The notes under the pieces were generated by a model. That model saw nothing but the letters and a program-made list of their open reading frames with translations, did no database searches and was not told the origin of the DNA. Below are positions 3-52,171 of a stretch of DNA of 64,000 bases, piece by piece. Source of the DNA: Bacteroidota bacterium (GTDB lineage Bacteria > Bacteroidota > Ignavibacteria > UBA10030 > CAVZMI01); assembly GCA_050011775.1 (NCBI GenBank), contig JBEKIL010000003.1:154224-218223 (forward strand), read 5' to 3'. The translations under genes and the position numbers were made by a program. Position 1 is the first letter of the stretch, and the number at the start of each line of letters is the position of its first letter.

Positions 3-2141
3 GTGGCGATATATGCCGGATCGTTTAGTACCGGCGGGGCAGTGTCGTTCCCGAAGGATAGTATTGTGCTTATTCTTCCGGGAGCATCGAATATGAGCGT
101 TAGAATGAATGTCCCGGTTGTTGCCGCATCTCAATCGGATCTTGCGCAGGTTCCGGATGGCTTCAACGTGGTCGATGCCAGCGGCAATGCTCTCCGCTAT
201 ACTCTACATACATTCGACAAAAATGCTGTTGCTGATTCCAATGCATCATATGCGACGAATGGAATACTGAGACTGGCTACGCATCTTCATACGAACATAC
301 CGACAATAACTCCCTCCGATTTAAATCTCGATGTCGGTGTTATTGTGATCACTCCGAATAGTGTCGAGAGCGTCCAGAGTACCAACCAAATTTCCGCTCA
401 GCTTGAGAAATGGCAACTGGTGAGCAGTGATTGGAGTTTTAATGGTTCCGGCCTGGTGCTTCATACCGGAGCGATGAAAACCGGACTGGTAGATGTTCCG
501 TTCACAAAAGACCTTCCGATCACACCGGTAAAGTTGGAGACGGAGAAGTCGAGTTTTGATTTAAAAAACTTGACGCTGGGCGGAGTAATACCTCTGGTGA
601 TCACCGGAGATGCAAGTTTTGTGTACAACCCCTATGCAGGTATTGATGAACCGAAAGGGCACTGGTCGCTGATGGTGATACCGAAACCGGGGATGAGTGA
701 ATGTGCAATGATCAATACGCTTCCCGGCATGAGTCAAGGCGATAAAATTTCGTTCGGTTCATTTTATGTGTTGAGTAACGGGGAGACGGGATTTGCCGCG
801 GATCCTAATGCTCCGCCCATTACACTCTATAATACAGTGTCGTTCACACCGGTCAAGATCGTTGTATATCCGAATCGTGTGAATGTTCCAGGTTCGTTTG
901 ATCTTCATATTCCACTTGACGGCGGCGGTAAAACAACGTCGATTGATTACTACAAAGACGTCAATAATAATATCGCCTTTTCGTTCGATCCGATCAATTT
1001 CAAATTTGATACAAAGGGTGTGCATATCGACATTCCGGGTAATGCAAACAATCCGCAAACGCTTGACGAACACGGATTTATCGCGAAAGGAGCGGTCTCC
1101 GAAGCAGGGAAATTTGCTTTTACTATCCATTTATTCCGGACACCCGATTCGACGTCACTCTGGATTGATCCGGGACAGTCGCTTGATATCGCGGCTAACA
1201 GTTCATCGAAGCTGAATGCGATTGCCGGTAATATGCATGTGGAGAGCGGTACCTGGACTAATCTATGGTTCGCCGGAGACATGACGGGAACTGAAGGAGC
1301 CACCGGCAGACTCGCCTTCACAGTGTATGGTGAGATTCTTGCCAATAATCAACAGGTTGGTGTAAAAAATATTCCTTTACCATTCGGAAATATCACCCTC
1401 ACGTATGATTTTGTCAATCACCGTCTTTTCGGATCGGTCGATTTCAGTCAGGGAATCAATCTCGGACCTACAGAGGTTGCAGGTGTTGCTGAGGTGTTGA
1501 TTGATAACGATGGGTGGTATTTCCTGGCCGGAGCAAACCTGAAACTTGTAGGATTCGGCGGACAGGCCGCTGTGATTTTTGGCAATTACCCCATGACGGA
1601 TCATATTAAAAATCTATTCGGCCAATTCTCCTGGATTTATCAACACAAAGGTGAGTTTCCCACTGCATTTCCGGCGCATATCAAGGGATTTTATGGCGAA
1701 GGCGAGATGCAAATGCCATTCATTCCAAGTCTAGGATTCAATTTCTTCATCGTTTCGGGTGAGTTATATGTCAACATCGGCGGTGATCAAAGCATAGGTA
1801 TGAATTTTGACGGCGGAATATCATACTCCACGGGAGTAAACATCTTCGGAGAAGCTGGAGCAGGAATTGGCGGGTCGATCGGAATTGCATGTGCCGGACT
1901 CAAAGCATCCGCTATTGTGATTGCCGGATATGGAGGGCAGATCAGCACCAATGGCGACTGGTTTGTCGAAGGCGATGCTTCGTTATCTTTATGCGGCTCG
2001 GCGTATGCCGGATGGGGAGTATGCGACTCGGACTGCGATGGGACATTCTGTGATAAACATGAAGTGGGTGGATGTATCACCGTGGGACTAAAGGCGCATT
2101 TCGGAAGTGACGGAAAAAGTATAACTCCATATATAAAATGA
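3..2141 (+). CDS. large secreted/surface protein, 5'-truncated at window edge (712 aa visible), function unknown
   Basis: Long uninterrupted ORF running off the 5' edge. Gly/Cys-rich C-terminus (CDSDCDGTFCDKHEVGGC). Followed 10 bp later by co-oriented Fn3-repeat and outer-membrane barrel genes. No catalytic motif recognised. Confidence 0.55.
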   Translation: MAIYAGSFSTGGAVSFPKDSIVLILPGASNMSVRMNVPVVAASQSDLAQVPDGFNVVDASGNALRYTLHTFDKNAVADSNASYATNGILRLATHLHTNIPTITPSDLNLDVGVIVITPNSVESVQSTNQISAQLEKWQLVSSDWSFNGSGLVLHTGAMKTGLVDVPFTKDLPITPVKLETEKSSFDLKNLTLGGVIPLVITGDASFVYNPYAGIDEPKGHWSLMVIPKPGMSECAMINTLPGMSQGDKISFGSFYVLSNGETGFAADPNAPPITLYNTVSFTPVKIVVYPNRVNVPGSFDLHIPLDGGGKTTSIDYYKDVNNNIAFSFDPINFKFDTKGVHIDIPGNANNPQTLDEHGFIAKGAVSEAGKFAFTIHLFRTPDSTSLWIDPGQSLDIAANSSSKLNAIAGNMHVESGTWTNLWFAGDMTGTEGATGRLAFTVYGEILANNQQVGVKNIPLPFGNITLTYDFVNHRLFGSVDFSQGINLGPTEVAGVAEVLIDNDGWYFLAGANLKLVGFGGQAAVIFGNYPMTDHIKNLFGQFSWIYQHKGEFPTAFPAHIKGFYGEGEMQMPFIPSLGFNFFIVSGELYVNIGGDQSIGMNFDGGISYSTGVNIFGEAGAGIGGSIGIACAGLKASAIVIAGYGGQISTNGDWFVEGDASLSLCGSAYAGWGVCDSDCDGTFCDKHEVGGCITVGLKAHFGSDGKSITPYIK

Positions 2142-2151
2142 GAGCAGACCA

Positions 2152-4182
2152 ATGAAAATATCAACATTGATTGGCATCGTAACCGTTTTCCTTGTCTGCG
2201 GTATCGTAACTGCACAACAACCTCTCAAGGCGGTTGTGGGAGGCGGTCCGCGAGGAATCTATATTCATGTTGGGAATGATATTGTCTCACCGAAAAATCC
2301 TGTGCAAAATGTTGCAGGGTATCGGATTGAGCGTAAGAAAAAAACCGAAAATTCATGGAACCTGATAGCCGATGTTGTATCGGCACAGTCGCTTTACGAA
2401 TTTACCGGCCGCCTCAGCGAAATCATGCCGCTTGTTCCGGAACCGCTGGCGATCGAGAAAATACCAGCGAAGATGTTATGGGAACGTGTGGAAAAATGGA
2501 GACGGATGGATTCGCTAAAGACTTGGGGAGCAATACTGCCGGTTCGGATTGCATTAGGAACGACCTATCTCGATACGACGGCGGAAAAAGGCGTTCAATA
2601 TGAATATCAGGTTTCAAAAATTGATACTTTTAAAAATATCAGGATTATTTTTACGTCACCGGCTGTCTCGTATCCACAGGCGGTTCAATATCCCCGTTTA
2701 CGGCTTGTGGAAAAAAATTCTCAGGGCAATCAGATTGGAATATCATGGGGGATGGGAGCAGGGAAAAAACCTGCAAGCATGGATGTATATAGAAAAGATG
2801 GGATTCACGCTTCATTCATGCATATTTATCCTGTGCGTGTCATTATTCAACGGCGGGATTCTGCCTACTACACGGTTCGTGATACATCAATCCAGATTAA
2901 ACAAATATATGCATATTTTCTCGTACCGAAGGATTTCTACGGCAATACAGGAAACCCGTCGGATACCGTTGTCATTTCATCAACAAGTTTTGCAGCGATA
3001 CGGCTACCCGACCGGTTGAAAGCAGAAAGCCTTGATACACTTGGCGGACTCCGTCTGCGATGGCATATTAATGAACCCGCCGCGGTCAAAAGCCTGAAGA
3101 TTTTCCGGAGTGACGATTGGGATAAGGGATACAAACCGATAGCGACCGTCGCGCCTATGGATTCTGAGTATATCGATCAATCTGTTCAACCGATGGTTCG
3201 ATACTATTATTACATGACGATGACAGGTCCGTTGGGAGAAGAATCAGCGCCGACGGCAAAAGTGATCGGATTATATCGTAGTGCTGATATGCCTCTGCCG
3301 CCAGTCAACCTTCGCGGCGAGGGAATAAAAAACGGTGTTCGTCTTCAATGGGAAGTGAAGGATAAAGATGTCAATGGATTTTATGTGTACAGGGGAAAAG
3401 GAGGAAGCGATCCTCTCGAAGAGATCTCGCCTCTAATTCCTTTTAAAGAAAAAGAGATGGGGGGGATATACGTTGACACAAGCTCTGTACTGGTCGGGAA
3501 AGTTACGTATGTCTACTCCGTCAAGAGCGAGAGTAAGAGTCATGTCCTTGGGGGGTTTGCCGATACGATTTCAATACGACCATTGATACCCACTGTGCCC
3601 CTTACGCCGTTGAAATTCACGGCTGTGATCGACGGAAAAGAAGTACGATTGCACTGGTTAGATATGAAAGCGTCAGATGTGACCATCAAGGGGTATTACA
3701 TCTACAGGCGTGAAGATGCCGGTCAGGGATCGAAACGGCAGGAATTTAAGAAACTTGTTGATTCACTCCTTCCCTACACACTGAATTATTATGTTGATCA
3801 AAGTATCAGTGAAGGGAAAATATTTGAATATGCGGTGCAATCAGTTGATTTTTTCAATGGAGTGAGTTCTCTCAGTGCCAGCGAACGGGTAAATATTCTA
3901 CTTGAACTGCCGTTATCCCCATCGGGTATTCGCGTCGAAAAAACCATGGATGGAGTTATGCTTAGATGGGGTGCCGTCGCTCATCCCGACGTAATGTCAT
4001 ACAAAATCCACAGGACACAGCTTGATGGAAAAGAGGGTGTGGTAGGAACTGTGAAGTCTGATAAACTGGAATTTCTCGATCGCACTGTTAAGAGCGGGCA
4101 ATTATATTTCTATACGGTAACGACGGTATGGAAAAATGGCCGGGAGAGTAATCCAAGCAAGGAGATTTCGATTCGTCCATAA
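2152..4182 (+). CDS. secreted protein with ~6 fibronectin type III-like repeats
   Basis: N-terminal signal peptide (MKISTLIGIVTVFLVCGIVTAQQ). Roughly 100-aa periodic repeats with the Fn3 hallmark pattern (...LRWH / LQWEV / LHWLD / LRWGAV ... GYxIYR...). Starts 10 bp after the upstream gene. Confidence 0.7.
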   Translation: MKISTLIGIVTVFLVCGIVTAQQPLKAVVGGGPRGIYIHVGNDIVSPKNPVQNVAGYRIERKKKTENSWNLIADVVSAQSLYEFTGRLSEIMPLVPEPLAIEKIPAKMLWERVEKWRRMDSLKTWGAILPVRIALGTTYLDTTAEKGVQYEYQVSKIDTFKNIRIIFTSPAVSYPQAVQYPRLRLVEKNSQGNQIGISWGMGAGKKPASMDVYRKDGIHASFMHIYPVRVIIQRRDSAYYTVRDTSIQIKQIYAYFLVPKDFYGNTGNPSDTVVISSTSFAAIRLPDRLKAESLDTLGGLRLRWHINEPAAVKSLKIFRSDDWDKGYKPIATVAPMDSEYIDQSVQPMVRYYYYMTMTGPLGEESAPTAKVIGLYRSADMPLPPVNLRGEGIKNGVRLQWEVKDKDVNGFYVYRGKGGSDPLEEISPLIPFKEKEMGGIYVDTSSVLVGKVTYVYSVKSESKSHVLGGFADTISIRPLIPTVPLTPLKFTAVIDGKEVRLHWLDMKASDVTIKGYYIYRREDAGQGSKRQEFKKLVDSLLPYTLNYYVDQSISEGKIFEYAVQSVDFFNGVSSLSASERVNILLELPLSPSGIRVEKTMDGVMLRWGAVAHPDVMSYKIHRTQLDGKEGVVGTVKSDKLEFLDRTVKSGQLYFYTVTTVWKNGRESNPSKEISIRP

Positions 4183-48212: not shown

Positions 48213-51038
48213 TTAGAGCATCGATTGTACAATTGATGTCGCTTTCTGGAGTGCTTCATCGAGTTTTGCTATGTCTTTTCCTCCGGCGGTTGCCATGTGA
48301 GGACGTCCGCCTCCGCCTCCGCCCAGAAGTTTTGCCACTTCACCGACGATTTTTCCGGCACTTAATTTTTTTTGTGCGACAAGATCGTCAGTTACAACAC
48401 ATACAAGAGCCACTTTTTCTTCTGTTATTGCCGCCAGTATTCCGATGCCGGTGCCAAGCTTTGCGCGCAGTGTGTCGCCGATCGATTTCAAGGACTCCAT
48501 GTCGTTTGCATCGATTTTCGACACAATAATCTTGATCCCGTTTGTCACAGTTGCCTTTTGAATAAGTGTATCGATGTCGGCTGCCGAAGATTGTATTTTT
48601 TGGCGGGTTAGCTCTTTTTCGAGCTTTTTCTTCACATCGGCAAGCTCCAGAATTGTATCTTCGAGCTTCCGGAACCTTATCCTTTGTTCTTCAAATGCCC
48701 GTTTCATATCGGCAGGAATTACTGAAGAGGGAAGTCCGGGAATATTCTCATACAGCTTCAACTGATTTTCGAATACCCCGGGATCAGTTGTTACTTTGGT
48801 TCCCACCGCGCAGAGGCTCTGTACGAGCGATTCGATATCGGTCAGTATTGTATATCCGTATTCTATTCGCTCGAAGTATGATTTGTTCTGGAGAGCAAGG
48901 AATTCGAGGGCATGATCGTGCGTGAGCGCTTCCACACGGTGTATGCCGCTTGCAATACTTCCTTCAAACCGGAATTTGAAAAAGCCGATCTCTTTCGTAT
49001 TCAGCACATGCGTCCCGCCACAAAATTCCATGCTGAAATCGCCGAATTGACATACATTGACCCGGTCGCCGTATTTATCGCCGAAGAACATCAACGCGCC
49101 CATTTGCTTCGCCTGCTCAAACGGAATATCACGATAATGTTGTAAGGGAATGCTCTCACCGATTTTTTCGTTCACAAGGTCTTCAATTGCATTAAGCTCG
49201 GCATCAGTGACTTTGCTGAAATGCGCGAAGTCGAAACGAAGGTGATCGGGATCGACCAGCGAGCCGGACTGGTGCGTATGAGTGCCGAGGATTTTTCGCA
49301 GTGCCGCGTGCAGCAGATGTGTGGCGCTGTGGTTGCGCATAATATTAATGCGACGATTGACCTCTACACGAGAATATACTTTTTGTCCAGACTCAAGGTT
49401 TTTAACGATATCTATTACATGTACAATTATATCTCCGCTTTTTAAACTATTTAAGACTTTAATCTTATGATCTCCCACTTCGATTTCACCGGTATCGCCG
49501 ACTTGACCACCTGATTCACCATATAATGGTGTGCAATCTAACACTAATTGACCAAATCCGTCACTTCGAATTATTCGTCCTTCATATTCAAGATTATCAT
49601 AACCAACAAAATCAGTTTTCTTGTCCTTCAACTCAGAGGTTATTTGTGCCAAACCTTTTGCGAGTGGATAATGAACACCAGAATGTCCATCAGTGATATC
49701 GTAAGCTCTTTTTAGTTCTGATTGAAACCTTGAATGCTCCCGTTGGTTTTCCATCAACTCCAAAAATTTTTTTGTATCTACAGTTATACTTTTCTCAGAA
49801 CATAATAATTGGGTCAAATCAATGGGGAATCCATATGTATCATAGAGTTTAAAAGCTACATCACCAGGGAGGATTTTTGTATCTCCGATTGAACGAACAG
49901 CATTCTCGAATATCTCGAGCCCGCGATCGAGCGTTTGATTGAATCCTTCTTCTTCACTCTTGATCACACGTTCAATATGTTTTTGATGTTCTTTTATTTC
50001 TGGAAAGACATCCGACATCGTATCGACGAGGGTACCGACAAGCTGATAGAGAAAAGGTTCACGCAATCCAAGTGTATGTCCGAACCGTGCCGCGCGGCGG
50101 AGTATTCTCCGAAGTACGTACCCGCGTCCTTCGTTCGACGGTATCGCGCCGTCTGCGATTGCAAAAGCTAGGGCACGGATATGATCGGAGATGACGCGCA
50201 TTGCTACGTCGTGTTCTTTCTCTTTACCATACGGGAGTCCGGATATTTTCGAGATCATGGTTAAAAGAGGTCTGAAGACATCCGAGTCGTAGTTCGACGG
50301 CGGGCGCTGAAAATTATATTTGATAGCCTCCATGATTCCGCATACACGTTCGAATCCCATTCCGGTATCGACGTGTTTTGCAGGTAGTTCTTCCAGCTCA
50401 CCGCGATCATTACGATTATTCTGGATGAAGACAAGGTTCCAGATTTCGATTAAAAGAGGAGAGCCGGCATTGACGAGCGATGCCGGAGCATCGGCGCCCG
50501 GTGTGAGATCGATATGAATCTCGGAGCAGGGACCGCATGGTCCGGTTTCACCCATTTCCCAAAAATTATCTTTCTCGTCAAAGCGCAGAATGTGGGTCGG
50601 GTCAATATCGGTGGCTGATTTCCAGAGATCGAACGATTCGTCGTCGGTCCGGTAGACGGTCGCCCAGAATCGCTTTTTTGGAAGTTTCCATACGTCTGTT
50701 AGAAGCTTCCATGCCCACTGGATTGCTTCTTTTTTATAGTAATCGCCGAACGACCAGTTGCCGAGCATTTCGAAAAACGTGTGGTGGTATGTATCGCGTC
50801 CGACCTCTTCGAGATCGTTATGTTTTCCACTGACGCGGATGCATTTTTGTGTATCTGCGGCGCGGGTATAGTCGCGTTTTCCGGTTCCGAGAAATACGTC
50901 CTTGAATTGGTTCATCCCGGCATTGGTAAAGAGGAGTGTAGGATCGCCGTGGGGTATGACGGGGGCACTGGGCACGATGCGGTGCTGCTTCGACTCAAAG
51001 TATTTCAAAAAGCTCGCCCGAATTTCCCGAGAGGTCAT
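48213..51038 (-). CDS. alaS: alanine--tRNA ligase
   Basis: Class II AlaRS N-terminus (FLKYFESKQHRIVPSAPVIP..DPTLLFTNAGMNQFK...HHTFFEMLGNWSFGDYYK). Editing domain HxxxH/CxxxH region. C-terminal DHHA1-like GGGGG motif. Confidence 0.97.
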   Translation of the reverse strand: MTSREIRASFLKYFESKQHRIVPSAPVIPHGDPTLLFTNAGMNQFKDVFLGTGKRDYTRAADTQKCIRVSGKHNDLEEVGRDTYHHTFFEMLGNWSFGDYYKKEAIQWAWKLLTDVWKLPKKRFWATVYRTDDESFDLWKSATDIDPTHILRFDEKDNFWEMGETGPCGPCSEIHIDLTPGADAPASLVNAGSPLLIEIWNLVFIQNNRNDRGELEELPAKHVDTGMGFERVCGIMEAIKYNFQRPPSNYDSDVFRPLLTMISKISGLPYGKEKEHDVAMRVISDHIRALAFAIADGAIPSNEGRGYVLRRILRRAARFGHTLGLREPFLYQLVGTLVDTMSDVFPEIKEHQKHIERVIKSEEEGFNQTLDRGLEIFENAVRSIGDTKILPGDVAFKLYDTYGFPIDLTQLLCSEKSITVDTKKFLELMENQREHSRFQSELKRAYDITDGHSGVHYPLAKGLAQITSELKDKKTDFVGYDNLEYEGRIIRSDGFGQLVLDCTPLYGESGGQVGDTGEIEVGDHKIKVLNSLKSGDIIVHVIDIVKNLESGQKVYSRVEVNRRINIMRNHSATHLLHAALRKILGTHTHQSGSLVDPDHLRFDFAHFSKVTDAELNAIEDLVNEKIGESIPLQHYRDIPFEQAKQMGALMFFGDKYGDRVNVCQFGDFSMEFCGGTHVLNTKEIGFFKFRFEGSIASGIHRVEALTHDHALEFLALQNKSYFERIEYGYTILTDIESLVQSLCAVGTKVTTDPGVFENQLKLYENIPGLPSSVIPADMKRAFEEQRIRFRKLEDTILELADVKKKLEKELTRQKIQSSAADIDTLIQKATVTNGIKIIVSKIDANDMESLKSIGDTLRAKLGTGIGILAAITEEKVALVCVVTDDLVAQKKLSAGKIVGEVAKLLGGGGGGRPHMATAGGKDIAKLDEALQKATSIVQSML

Positions 51039-51064
51039 AATAATATCTCAAAAATACATGAACA

Positions 51065-51392
51065 TTTCAGGATGCCCCGTCAGGGGCAACTCCACAAAAA
51101 TATGCCATTTAAAAAACGAATTGCAATCGCGGGATGCCCCGTTAGGGGCAGCTTCATTAGAACTAGCCATTTTAAAAATAATCAGCCATTTCAGGATGCC
51201 CCGTCAGGGGCAGATTCATTAGAACTAGCTATTTAAAAAATAATCAGCCATTTCAGGATGCCCCGTCAGGGGCAGATTCATTAGAACCAGCTATTTAAAA
51301 AATAATCAGCCATTTCAGGATGCCCCGTCAGGGGCAGCCTATTTGTAGCTTTTGATACCGAGGAAAAACTCGTAAGCCCCGTAGGGGCGACC
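51065..51392. repeat. tandem array of 5 GGATGCCCCGT(C/T)AGGGGCAG palindromic (REP-like) units with near-identical ~40-bp linkers, plus a sixth variant hairpin AGCCCCGTAGGGGCGA
   Basis: Hairpins at 51065-51090, 51128-51151, 51190-51213, 51251-51275, 51313-51337 and 51373-51392. Linkers attcattagaactagc(c/t)atttaaaaaataatcagccatttca are nearly identical in units 2-4. Unit period ~62 bp. Confidence 0.85.
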
Positions 51393-51875
51393 TATTCATT
51401 TTTTGCTTGATCCTTCTCTATCCATTCGAACAAATACCGATCATCATATTCAACTGTGAATACGAAAATGCCCAAAAACCTTCCTGCCACGAAAATTTTC
51501 CTTTGAACCATTTCTTTTCATTGATGAAACCCGATGAACCGGCCTTAATGTCACGTACCAAATCAGATATCGCTACATCGGGATTCATTCCAACGAATAC
51601 ATGAATATGATCAGGCATTACATTAATAGCCAGGAGTTTTTGATTACGTTTTCTAACAATACCTGTAATATATTTGTACAACTCTTCCCTTTTTTCTTTA
51701 CGTATTAACACGGTACTATTCTTCACTGTGAAAACAATCTGAATATAAATCTGTGAATACGTATTTACCATAGAGATATTTTTTACTTTTTATAATAGGC
51801 CGCTCCTAACGGAGCTTAGATTCTATTTTCTTATTTTGATTTTCTACAAATAGTCCGCGCCTACGGCGCTAAATA
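51373..51875 (-). mobile_element. IS200/IS605-family element (tnpA only) with flanking end hairpins, inserted between alaS and clpS
   Basis: tnpA ORF flanked by GCCCC-gta-GGGGC (51373-51392) on one side and GCTCC-taac-GGAGC (51802-51815) plus GCGCC-tac-GGCGC (51857-51869) on the other. Boundaries are approximate. Confidence 0.5.
51418..51771 (-). CDS. tnpA: IS200/IS605-family Y1 (HUH) transposase TnpA / RAYT-like
   Basis: 117 aa. HuH motif DHIHVFV. Catalytic Tyr region FWAFSYSQ. Conserved KAGSSGFIN. Typical IS200 size. Confidence 0.88.
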   Translation of the reverse strand: MVNTYSQIYIQIVFTVKNSTVLIRKEKREELYKYITGIVRKRNQKLLAINVMPDHIHVFVGMNPDVAISDLVRDIKAGSSGFINEKKWFKGKFSWQEGFWAFSYSQLNMMIGICSNG

Positions 51876-51883
51876 ATTTGTCG

Positions 51884-52171
51884 TCACATTTCAATTTGTG
51901 TATGGAGCTGGATTTCCTCCAGGATAATGACGACCTTGATGCAGCGCTCCATCGTTCCTTCCCATACGCACGCTTTTCCTTTCGAATGGACCTCCCACGT
52001 CAGGGTTTCAGCCTTTGCCTGACCACATCCCGTCGCCTTTTTTATCTGCGCGATCACTTCATCGAAAGTATGGATCTCGTCGTTGAAAAGGATAGCGCGT
52101 GCCGGCTCATCGGTGTGAGTGGTAGTATCGTCGTCGATTTCAAGTACCGGTTTTGTATTCTCGTCAGTCAT
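51884..52171 (-). CDS. clpS: ATP-dependent Clp protease adaptor ClpS
   Basis: ClpS core (ILFNDEIHTFDEVIAQI...GKACVWEGTMERC). Confidence 0.88.
   Translation of the reverse strand: MTDENTKPVLEIDDDTTTHTDEPARAILFNDEIHTFDEVIAQIKKATGCGQAKAETLTWEVHSKGKACVWEGTMERCIKVVIILEEIQLHTQIEM

Follow-up and report, generated by a model that had tools for sequence, protein, structure and literature searches.

Among the TnpA_Y1 transposases, subclass 1.2 has been described as lacking repetitive extragenic palindromes (REPs), typical terminal secondary structures, and the properties of insertion sequences (ISs) (Quentin 2018, BMC Genomics 19:475; PMC6006769), and no later work on this subclass was found in our literature searches. 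TnpA_REP cuts next to REPs at CC|T, as in GGCC|TACA (PMC3333891). For the tandem growth of bacterial interspersed mosaic elements (BIMEs), Ton-Hoang et al. have proposed a model in which a cut beside a hairpin, extension of the 3'-OH, a second cut on the new strand, and strand transfer together add one unit (PMC3333891). Tandem reiteration of REPs with their flanking DNA has been described as well (PMC3733652), and our literature searches found no tandem array at the right end of an element of the IS200/IS605 family. Here, we describe a tandem array of palindromic units in a 64,000-nucleotide stretch of a Bacteroidota genome (contig JBEKIL010000003.1, positions 154,224 to 218,223; the whole stretch is hereafter called the window). 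The array lies between alaS and a tnpA pseudogene and is probably the right-end hairpin module, amplified in tandem, of an old, decaying IS200-related insertion between clpS and alaS, belonging to a Y1/HUH transposase of subclass 1.2. We regard the insertion as a decaying mobile element because its gene is dead, an intact paralog has the same architecture, the site is empty or more decayed in relatives, and copies of the array without tnpA exist.

Architecture of the element and its array

Tandem Repeats Finder reported one array, at 51063-51337, with a period of 62, 4.4 copies, 86% matches, and a score of 392. In a motif search, the core GCCCCGTYAGGGGC was found five times, at 51074, 51136, 51198, 51260, and 51322, with a spacing of exactly 62 nt, and nowhere else in the window, where 0.25 occurrences would be expected by chance. 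The 20-mer GGATGCCCCGTYAGGGGCAG is exact in four of the copies, and the alaS-proximal copy ends in CAA, which is one mismatch. The five hairpin copies with a period of about 62 bp between alaS and tnpA, reported in an earlier note on this DNA, were thus borne out by the repeat finder and the motif positions, and the sixth hairpin that it placed next to tnpA is also present (GCCCCGTAGGGGC at 51376-51388).

On the strand that carries tnpA in the sense direction, the element consists of TTA and hairpin A, the tnpA pseudogene, hairpins C and D, and the array, and it lies entirely between the stop codon of clpS (51884) and the start codon of alaS (51038). Its parts are listed below. Bit scores and E-values refer to R1, a covariance model of the hairpin and its tail that was run with filters off.

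51063-51872, minus strand: whole element, about 810 bp, limits inferred from comparison with loci L003, L005, and L140/L141 and the empty site L145
51844-51872, minus strand: left end, TTA + hairpin A GCGCCgtaGGCGC + tail GGACTATTTGTAG (37.5 bits, E=2e-8)
51789-51815, minus strand: hairpin B GCTCCgttaGGAGC + tail GGCCTAT, about 20 nt upstream of the tnpA start (25.4 bits, E=5e-5)
51392-51771, minus strand: tnpA pseudogene, Y1/HUH, subclass 1.2 type (Pfam, alignments A1 and A2, translations, tblastn)
51418-51771, minus strand: N-terminal open reading frame (ORF) of tnpA, 117 aa, HUH motif DHIH present
51392-51460, minus strand: C-terminal remnant of tnpA in the other frame, VEYDDRYLFEWIEKDQAKNE followed by a stop
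51376-51401, plus strand: hairpin C GCCCCgtaGGGGC + tail GACCTAT (35.1 bits, E=9.5e-8)
51322-51348, plus strand: hairpin D GCCCCgtcaGGGGC + tail AGCCTATTTGTAG (29.8 bits, E=2.8e-6)
51063-51337, minus strand: tandem array (Tandem Repeats Finder, motif search, unit register, identities)
51337-51276, minus (tnpA-sense) strand: array unit u1
51275-51214, minus (tnpA-sense) strand: array unit u2
51213-51152, minus (tnpA-sense) strand: array unit u3
51151-51090, minus (tnpA-sense) strand: array unit u4, divergent, older type
51089-51063, minus (tnpA-sense) strand: array unit u5, a partial unit of 27 nt

Read on the sense strand, a unit is composed of CT-GCCCC-loop-GGGGC-ATCC and a linker of about 40 nt. 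The hairpin of u1 is hairpin D itself, and the array is thus a head-to-tail reiteration of the right-end hairpin with the sequence downstream of it. The entire 62-nt unit is repeated, in agreement with the earlier proposal that the whole unit had been amplified. The linkers had been called nearly identical; this holds for u1-u3, which are 93-98% identical to one another, and fails for u4, which is only 73-77% identical to u1-u3, and for u5, which is incomplete. The window array is a mosaic in which u1-u3 are of the type found at L003, the locus of the paralog described below, while u4 has more in common with the types of unit at L143 and L005. This mosaic suggests that units have been exchanged between the two loci of the source contig. 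The switches of unit type between u3, u4, and u5 are located at the hairpins, the only homology that these units share, and a core of 22 nt is identical between units.

The centroid fold of the single-stranded DNA (ssDNA) shows one hairpin per unit. Across the array lineages (alignment A3), the hairpin, the ATCC after it, two ATGGC-like boxes, and a T-run are conserved, the ATCC being invariant in the array units. Analysis of 17 units by RNAalifold gave structural support for the GC hairpin only, with the linker showing no covariation. Single-sequence folds had suggested a second stem, AT-rich and located in the linker, which was rejected because it was unsupported in this analysis. No Rfam family matched at gathering score in the window, or at E<=1 on the element.

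The hairpins on both sides of tnpA belong to one motif, a 5-bp GC stem, in most cases closed by a GTA loop, with the tail G-R-C-C-T-R-TTTGTAG after it. The hairpins of the other tnpA flank (51802-51815 and 51857-51869) had been considered different from those of the array; they are positioned as described, and proved to be the same hairpin and tail motif in inverted orientation. Hairpins A and D are inverted partners, and the array extends from D. The plan common to the window, L003, and L005 starts with TTA + A (GCGCC-gta-GGCGC) + GGCCTATTTGTAG, continues with B (GCTCC-gtca-GGAGC) + GGCCTAT and the tnpA ATG, has the stop codon inside ATAGG(T/C)C + C (GCCCC-tac-GGGGC), and ends with CTACAAATAGGCT + D (GCCCC-tac-GGGGC) + ATCC and the array. 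The hairpins are nested as two inverted pairs, A(B[tnpA]C)D, with A and B upstream of the gene (hairpin then tail) and C and D downstream of it (tail then hairpin), in eight of the eight lineages examined. Homology between independent copies begins at TTAG/TTAA + hairpin A. Hairpin B is conserved in L003, L005, L141, and L143, the same loci in which the junction CTACAAATAGGCT-GCCCC is also found, and the tail of hairpin C overlaps the ancestral tnpA stop codon (51392-51394) at a position conserved in all loci of the family. The plan is kept in distant members from Flavobacterium and other Bacteroidota (L124, L126, L128, and L130), with the tail variant GACCTGTTTGTAG.

The stem varies among the 33 instances of the motif (GCTCC, GCCCC, GCGCC, GCCTC, GTCCC, GCACC, and ATCC C) while its pairing is kept, and the third pair takes all four Watson-Crick types. 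Four of the five stem pairs change on both sides in the 25 aligned instances, and the covariation score is 0.47, compared with 0.16 in shuffles, of which 0/500 reach 0.47, and 0.03-0.11 with slid partners. C-C-T at positions 3-5 of the tail is almost invariant (29-32/33 instances).

The transposase gene and its relatives

Protein and DNA alignments and tblastn place a clean internal deletion of 103 bp in tnpA, whose junction falls between 51457 and 51456. Residues 110-138 are thereby lost, including the catalytic tyrosine of HYIQNQEYHH, and the frame is shifted; judged from its sequence, the window tnpA is a dead gene. The Pfam Y1_Tnp match of the window ORF covers positions 2-107 of 121, and the relatives are 153-160 aa long. 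When the window copy is compared with intact copies, the ratio of nonsynonymous to synonymous substitution rates (dN/dS) is still 0.10-0.13, which makes the inactivation recent relative to the divergence of this copy; in the family, the ratio is 0.06-0.14, indicating strong purifying selection. An intact paralog (P0007, 160 aa, 78% amino acid and 82% nucleotide identity) is located at L003, ~85 kb away on the same 306-kb contig, and has the same A-B-tnpA-C-D-array plan as the window element. The transposase, earlier taken to be single-copy, is therefore represented locally by a pseudogene, and the check for further tnpA copies yielded this second, intact one with the same ends and an array.

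The window copy scores 65.9 bits and the intact relatives 69-73 bits against the NCBIfam model transpos_IS200, above its cutoff of 55, whereas the scores against REP_Tyr_transpos are 26-43 bits overall and 26-42 bits for the intact relatives, below its cutoff of 80. The closest PDB sequences are the TnpA proteins of ISDra2, Sulfolobus, and IS608, and the REP-associated tyrosine transposase (RAYT) of Escherichia coli is absent from the PDB matches at E<=1. In alignment A1, the relatives of 153-160 aa share DHIH, WQEG, YIQNQEYHH, and the tail TF..EY..L..F..EYD..YLF. The names attached to the protein hits are Bacteroidota, Flavobacterium, and Kryptoniota. By its Y---Q--HH signature, motifs, length, and C-terminal tail, the enzyme belongs to subclass 1.2.

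Arrays of three to six units with a period of 59-64 nt are present in the window, at L003, twice at L005, at L143, and at the transposase-less loci L140/L142 and L141. At all of these loci the array begins at hairpin D and accompanies the element, and it is missing from the empty site. In L005, the closest relative, two elements stand in tandem, [A-(tnpA deleted)-C-six units][A-B-tnpA-C-D-five units]. In the upstream element of this pair (L005 9428-9900), tnpA has been removed precisely, the tail of A being fused to AATGAATAGG-hairpin C and six units, and at L003 (9740-9800) only a degenerate trace of an upstream copy of the L005 type is left.

The Joint Genome Institute (JGI) metagenome collection, which does not have the source contig among its sequences, was scanned with a 22-base unit pattern. 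Only three stretches were obtained, all from one metagenome. L140 and L142 together make up one locus, which assembly broke at the array, and L141 is a second locus with different flanks. Both loci have the order A-B-(~35 nt, no tnpA)-C-D-array and agree in their internal junction; this shared junction within different flanks points to a non-autonomous derivative that was copied to at least two sites. The hairpin A loop of L140 (~300-360, reverse strand) has an insertion of 34 nt, GTCCCGTAGG[tctacgatcccgacgagtcgcaagaccgtcgggg]GACGG, with a hairpin of its own (CCCGACG...CGTCGGG), perhaps a small insertion that had the hairpin as its target.

Members of the family from other lineages do not have this array. 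In L128, from another Bacteroidota genome, the A-type hairpin and tail are found in tandem, with three copies upstream of tnpA at a period of ~48 nt (2846-2967) and two copies downstream of it at a spacing of 34 nt (3648-3707). This independent multiplication, with periods of 34-48 nt, indicates that local amplification of the cognate hairpin is a recurrent tendency.

Units are identical or 92-100% identical within arrays and 91-95% identical between the pair of loci in the source genome. In the syntenic arrays of L003 and L005, units share 76-84% identity, with 80-83% nucleotide identity for tnpA. The units are thus more alike within a genome than between orthologous arrays, which points to concerted evolution. 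The TnpA proteins of L003 and L005 are 85% identical and the products of the neighbouring genes 69-81%. In Flavobacterium, two different orthologs occupy the same place (MarR-fadB-tnpA-thiolase-ACAD), with 84% identity for TnpA compared with 87-89% for the neighbours. On these sequence comparisons, intact copies of the family have persisted vertically over a long time, and insertion, decay, and loss have taken place occasionally.

The site itself is bounded by two host genes. The gene order on the minus strand is isocitrate dehydrogenase, clpS, tnpA, array, and alaS, and the alaS start codon lies 24 nt past the last, partial array unit.

51884-52171, minus strand: clpS, upstream host gene (Pfam ClpS)
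48213-51038, minus strand: alaS, downstream host gene (Pfam tRNA-synt_2c, tRNA_SAD, DHHA1)

The site was compared through the ClpS orthologs of close relatives, which are 80-86% identical. Its states are the following.

L145: clpS-alaS site empty, with the clpS stop, ~20 nt, and the alaS start
Window: element present, with the 103-bp deletion in tnpA
L143: element present, with other deletions that leave ~110 nt of tnpA; A, B, D, and the first array unit kept; contig ends in the array
L144: only hairpin A with its tail, another small hairpin, and a degenerate terminal unit

By this comparison, the window copy is a lineage-specific insertion that is missing in L145. The left-end and C-D segments are 80-89% identical in all comparisons, a range that does not discriminate between orthology with L143 and conversion by L003.

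In a scan for sigma-70 promoters and terminators, the stretch from clpS to alaS showed no terminator on the sense strand, and the array showed no promoter. In the gap between the isocitrate dehydrogenase gene and clpS, a terminator-like hairpin (52208-52194) and a sigma-70-like promoter (TTGAAA-17-TATACT, 52253-52225) were observed on the minus strand. This suggests that clpS starts a transcription unit running through the element into alaS. Transcription of alaS through the element is probable because the sense strand has no terminator, the promoter and the upstream terminator-like hairpin precede clpS, and clpS and alaS abut in L145. Within the first dozen alaS codons (51017-51031, minus strand), a terminator-like hairpin, CTCGGGAAATTCGGG, is followed by CGAGCTTTTT. 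The sequence TATTTTTG occurs 14 nt before the alaS ATG (51040-51060, minus strand) and again in u4 (51100-51112, minus strand). It matches the Bacteroidetes -7 promoter box TAnnTTTG in form and is a mere candidate; this motif is common by chance in AT-rich DNA.

Short-read contigs of more than one assembly end inside the array (L002, L004, L140/L142, and L143). At L003, the array has been called as a "gene" of 66 aa and another of 93 aa; a protein search with pseudo-ORFs derived from the array, aimed at other mis-called arrays, gave no matches.

Origin and growth of the array

If the array is the amplified right end of the insertion, as we consider probable, hairpin D and the ~40 nt after it would have been duplicated head-to-tail. 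By analogy with IS608/ISDra2 and TnpA_REP, the hairpins would serve the enzyme as ssDNA binding sites, and the CC|T or ATCC at the hairpin foot, which is nearly invariant, is a candidate cleavage site; its likeness to the CC|T sites of TnpA_REP is a lead. The inverted pairs would provide hairpin and tail sites on each strand, as in BIMEs. Units could be added one at a time through cleavage, priming, and strand transfer by the enzyme, as modelled for TnpA_REP on BIMEs, a scheme that would give exactly such a head-to-tail array of constant period. Alternatively, units could be added by slippage or by unequal recombination between the identical hairpins, which could also homogenise them, and sequence alone cannot separate this route from addition by the enzyme. 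As the window copy is without an enzyme of its own, it would be changeable only in trans, via the intact paralog, or passively, via host recombination.

It is a different matter whether slippage or unequal crossing-over could account for the whole array as an ordinary tandem repeat of the host, with no role for the Y1 enzyme and a coincidental position beside tnpA. The perfect head-to-tail periodicity, the ample homology offered by the identical 22-nt core, the location of the u3/u4/u5 type switches at the hairpins, and the dead local enzyme would all fit such an origin. We nevertheless find it quite improbable, since the array always starts from hairpin D and travels with the element (at the paralog, twice at L005, at L143, and at L140/L141) and is missing in the empty site. 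Slippage may still maintain the array, and this account differs from the amplified right end only in how units are added. An RNA-producing locus, such as an alaS leader or attenuator or a small-RNA array, or a CRISPR array, would share the regular short palindromic repeat and a position directly upstream of an essential gene with which it is probably co-transcribed. Such an origin is very hard to credit. The "spacers" are copies of one another (93-98% identical in u1-u3), which already contradicts CRISPR, as the earlier note had rightly maintained. There is no Rfam match, the consensus fold consists of the GC hairpin only, and alaS directly follows clpS in L145, so that the array is not a conserved control element of alaS.

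The earlier note had favoured a REP/BIME-RAYT or REPIN pattern, that is, palindromes spread over the genome by a domesticated single-copy RAYT, with the array as a local cluster of the BIME or REPIN type. Part of this pattern is indeed present: the hairpins are cognate to the neighbouring Y1 gene, and they flank it, with their tails, in the inverted arrangement of REPs around a RAYT in REPtrons, the tail containing GTAG. Intact members of the family are low-copy, syntenic across species, and under purifying selection, and REPs with their flanking DNA are known to be reiterated in tandem (PMC3733652). The JGI annotation "RayT" for relatives is merely the generic name of the cluster of orthologous groups (COG). 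The parts of the pattern that found no support are the RAYT identity, the single copy, and, in the sequence examined, the dispersal. The enzyme falls under the curated RAYT cutoff and over the IS200 cutoff, and its tyrosine motif is YIQNQEYHH (Y---Q--HH), not Y..NP. In the window, R1 gave four hits, which are exactly A, B, C, and D (E 2e-8 to 5e-5), the next score being 9.8 bits (E=1.2). In 97 kb of related loci, every significant hit of R1 was in an element or a remnant, and none was in the locus with the empty site; perfect-stem scans likewise found no motif away from the element. Of the source contig, 81 kb are represented by the window and L003 combined, a length in which REPs at their usual densities should have given several dispersed copies; a family of low density might escape notice in it. 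The metagenome scan found the unit only in two loci of one other organism. Moreover, the whole unit including tnpA is present or absent at clpS-alaS, and REPtrons do not move as a unit. Taken together, we regard a REP/REPIN-RAYT system as unlikely here.

A scan of genome contigs with CTGCCCCTN{1,2}CGGGGCATCC returned at least 118 loci, nearly all of which were single hits by chance in genomes rich in GC, and none among the matches listed had the tail or an array. The core CTGCCCCT..CGGGGCATCC was found in a few unrelated genomes, on several contigs each of the metagenome-assembled genome (MAG) CAYJOG01 (L021, L023, L026, and L073), a Dialister MAG (L054, L105, and L111), and JAOUEW01 (L045, L076, L117, and L119). 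In CAYJOG01, the GC hairpin core is located at the very ends of contigs. These recurrent cores are probably unrelated REP-like repeats of the respective genomes. Three matches in a scan of viral contigs with the family hairpin and tail pattern were rejected as chance; they represent one phage coding sequence and have no hairpin.

Several observations weigh against the array being the amplified end of an IS200-related insertion. Intact genes are syntenic, diverge in step with their neighbours, and are under strong purifying selection, as expected of a resident or domesticated gene more than of a hopping IS. The end hairpins are inverted, unlike those of IS608 and ISDra2, which lie on one strand, and resemble REPtrons more; "IS200-like" thus describes the enzyme better than the ends. 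Eight left flanks share only the TT of TTAG/TTAA, which may be the element's own, and the right boundary is approximate. The stem statistics are subject to ascertainment bias, as the hairpins were first found by requiring perfect stems and "100% paired" is partly so by construction, while the positional association of the motif with tail and gene is independent of this bias. Moreover, the evidence for exchange between the two loci amounts to a few dozen nucleotides, and cleavage sites, strand specificity, and the mechanism of amplification are inferred by analogy. We still consider the amplified right end of a decaying insertion the probable origin of the array.

Comparison with described systems and implications

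The enzyme shares with subclass 1.2 (PMC6006769) the motifs DH[IV]H, WQ, and Y---Q--HH, a length of ~150-160 aa here compared with ~148 aa, the conserved C-terminal tail, the low copy number with divergent paralogs (78% on one contig), and the Bacteroidota host, the hosts of the subclass being Bacteroidetes or Cyanobacteria. It differs from the published description in that every member examined here is bracketed by two nested inverted hairpin and tail pairs, that the right-hand hairpin has been amplified to an array in one lineage, and that site polymorphism and tnpA-less copies show past mobility. The conserved hairpin and tail flanks thus appear to add to, and partly contradict, the description of subclass 1.2, while membership itself is not contradicted.

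With the IS200/IS605 family (IS608, ISDra2, and IS200, with the palindrome-associated transposable elements, PATEs, and miniature inverted-repeat transposable elements, MITEs), the element has in common a Y1 HUH enzyme that passes the IS200 model, a size of ~0.8 kb, sub-terminal GC hairpins, no obvious target duplication, empty as well as occupied sites, and internally deleted non-autonomous copies. In contrast to that family, copies within a genome are ~80% identical here instead of nearly identical, and intact copies are syntenic across species. REPtrons, BIMEs, and TnpA_REP (Nunvar 2010; Bertels and Rainey 2011; Ton-Hoang 2012, PMC3333891; Di Nocera 2013, PMC3733652) resemble the locus in their inverted palindromes, a GTAG-containing tag, a conserved CC|T beside the hairpin, local tandem units of hairpin and linker, and a low-copy gene that is apparently inherited vertically in its intact copies. 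Here, however, the enzyme is outside the RAYT clade, GTAG is found 9 nt 3' of the stem and not directly 5' of it, the units are arranged head-to-tail and do not alternate, and no dispersal was seen in the 64-kb window and 97 kb of related loci. The layout is therefore REPtron-like, with a local REP cluster, while the enzyme type, the site polymorphism, and the non-autonomous copies are like those of the IS200 type.

The array itself is a remnant of mobile DNA and does not point to a new biological system. Its value lies in the poorly characterised subclass 1.2, which gains a defined candidate DNA substrate, namely the 5-bp GC hairpin with its GTA loop and tail in nested inverted pairs; with it, oligonucleotides could directly probe how specifically the enzyme binds and cleaves. 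In addition, the series of loci, from the empty site and the intact gene through the 103-bp deletion and larger deletions to hairpin remnants and transposase-less arrays, forms a natural record of decay and of the amplification of an end module. Arrays of this type break short-read assemblies and can pass for CRISPRs or genes.

We tentatively consider whether the subclass 1.2 proteins of Bacteroidota represent a third lifestyle between IS200 transposases and RAYTs, in which long-lived, vertically inherited, selected genes keep private cognate hairpin and tail sites around themselves (a "local REPtron"), occasionally give rise to copies and transposase-less derivatives, and, through the intact enzyme, add or exchange units in cis and in trans; this is possible, though on balance doubtful. 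If it were true, exchange of units by the enzyme would explain why arrays are uniform within a genome, and where an array directly precedes an essential gene, as with alaS, it could be tolerated as a transcribed structured spacer or put to use as one.

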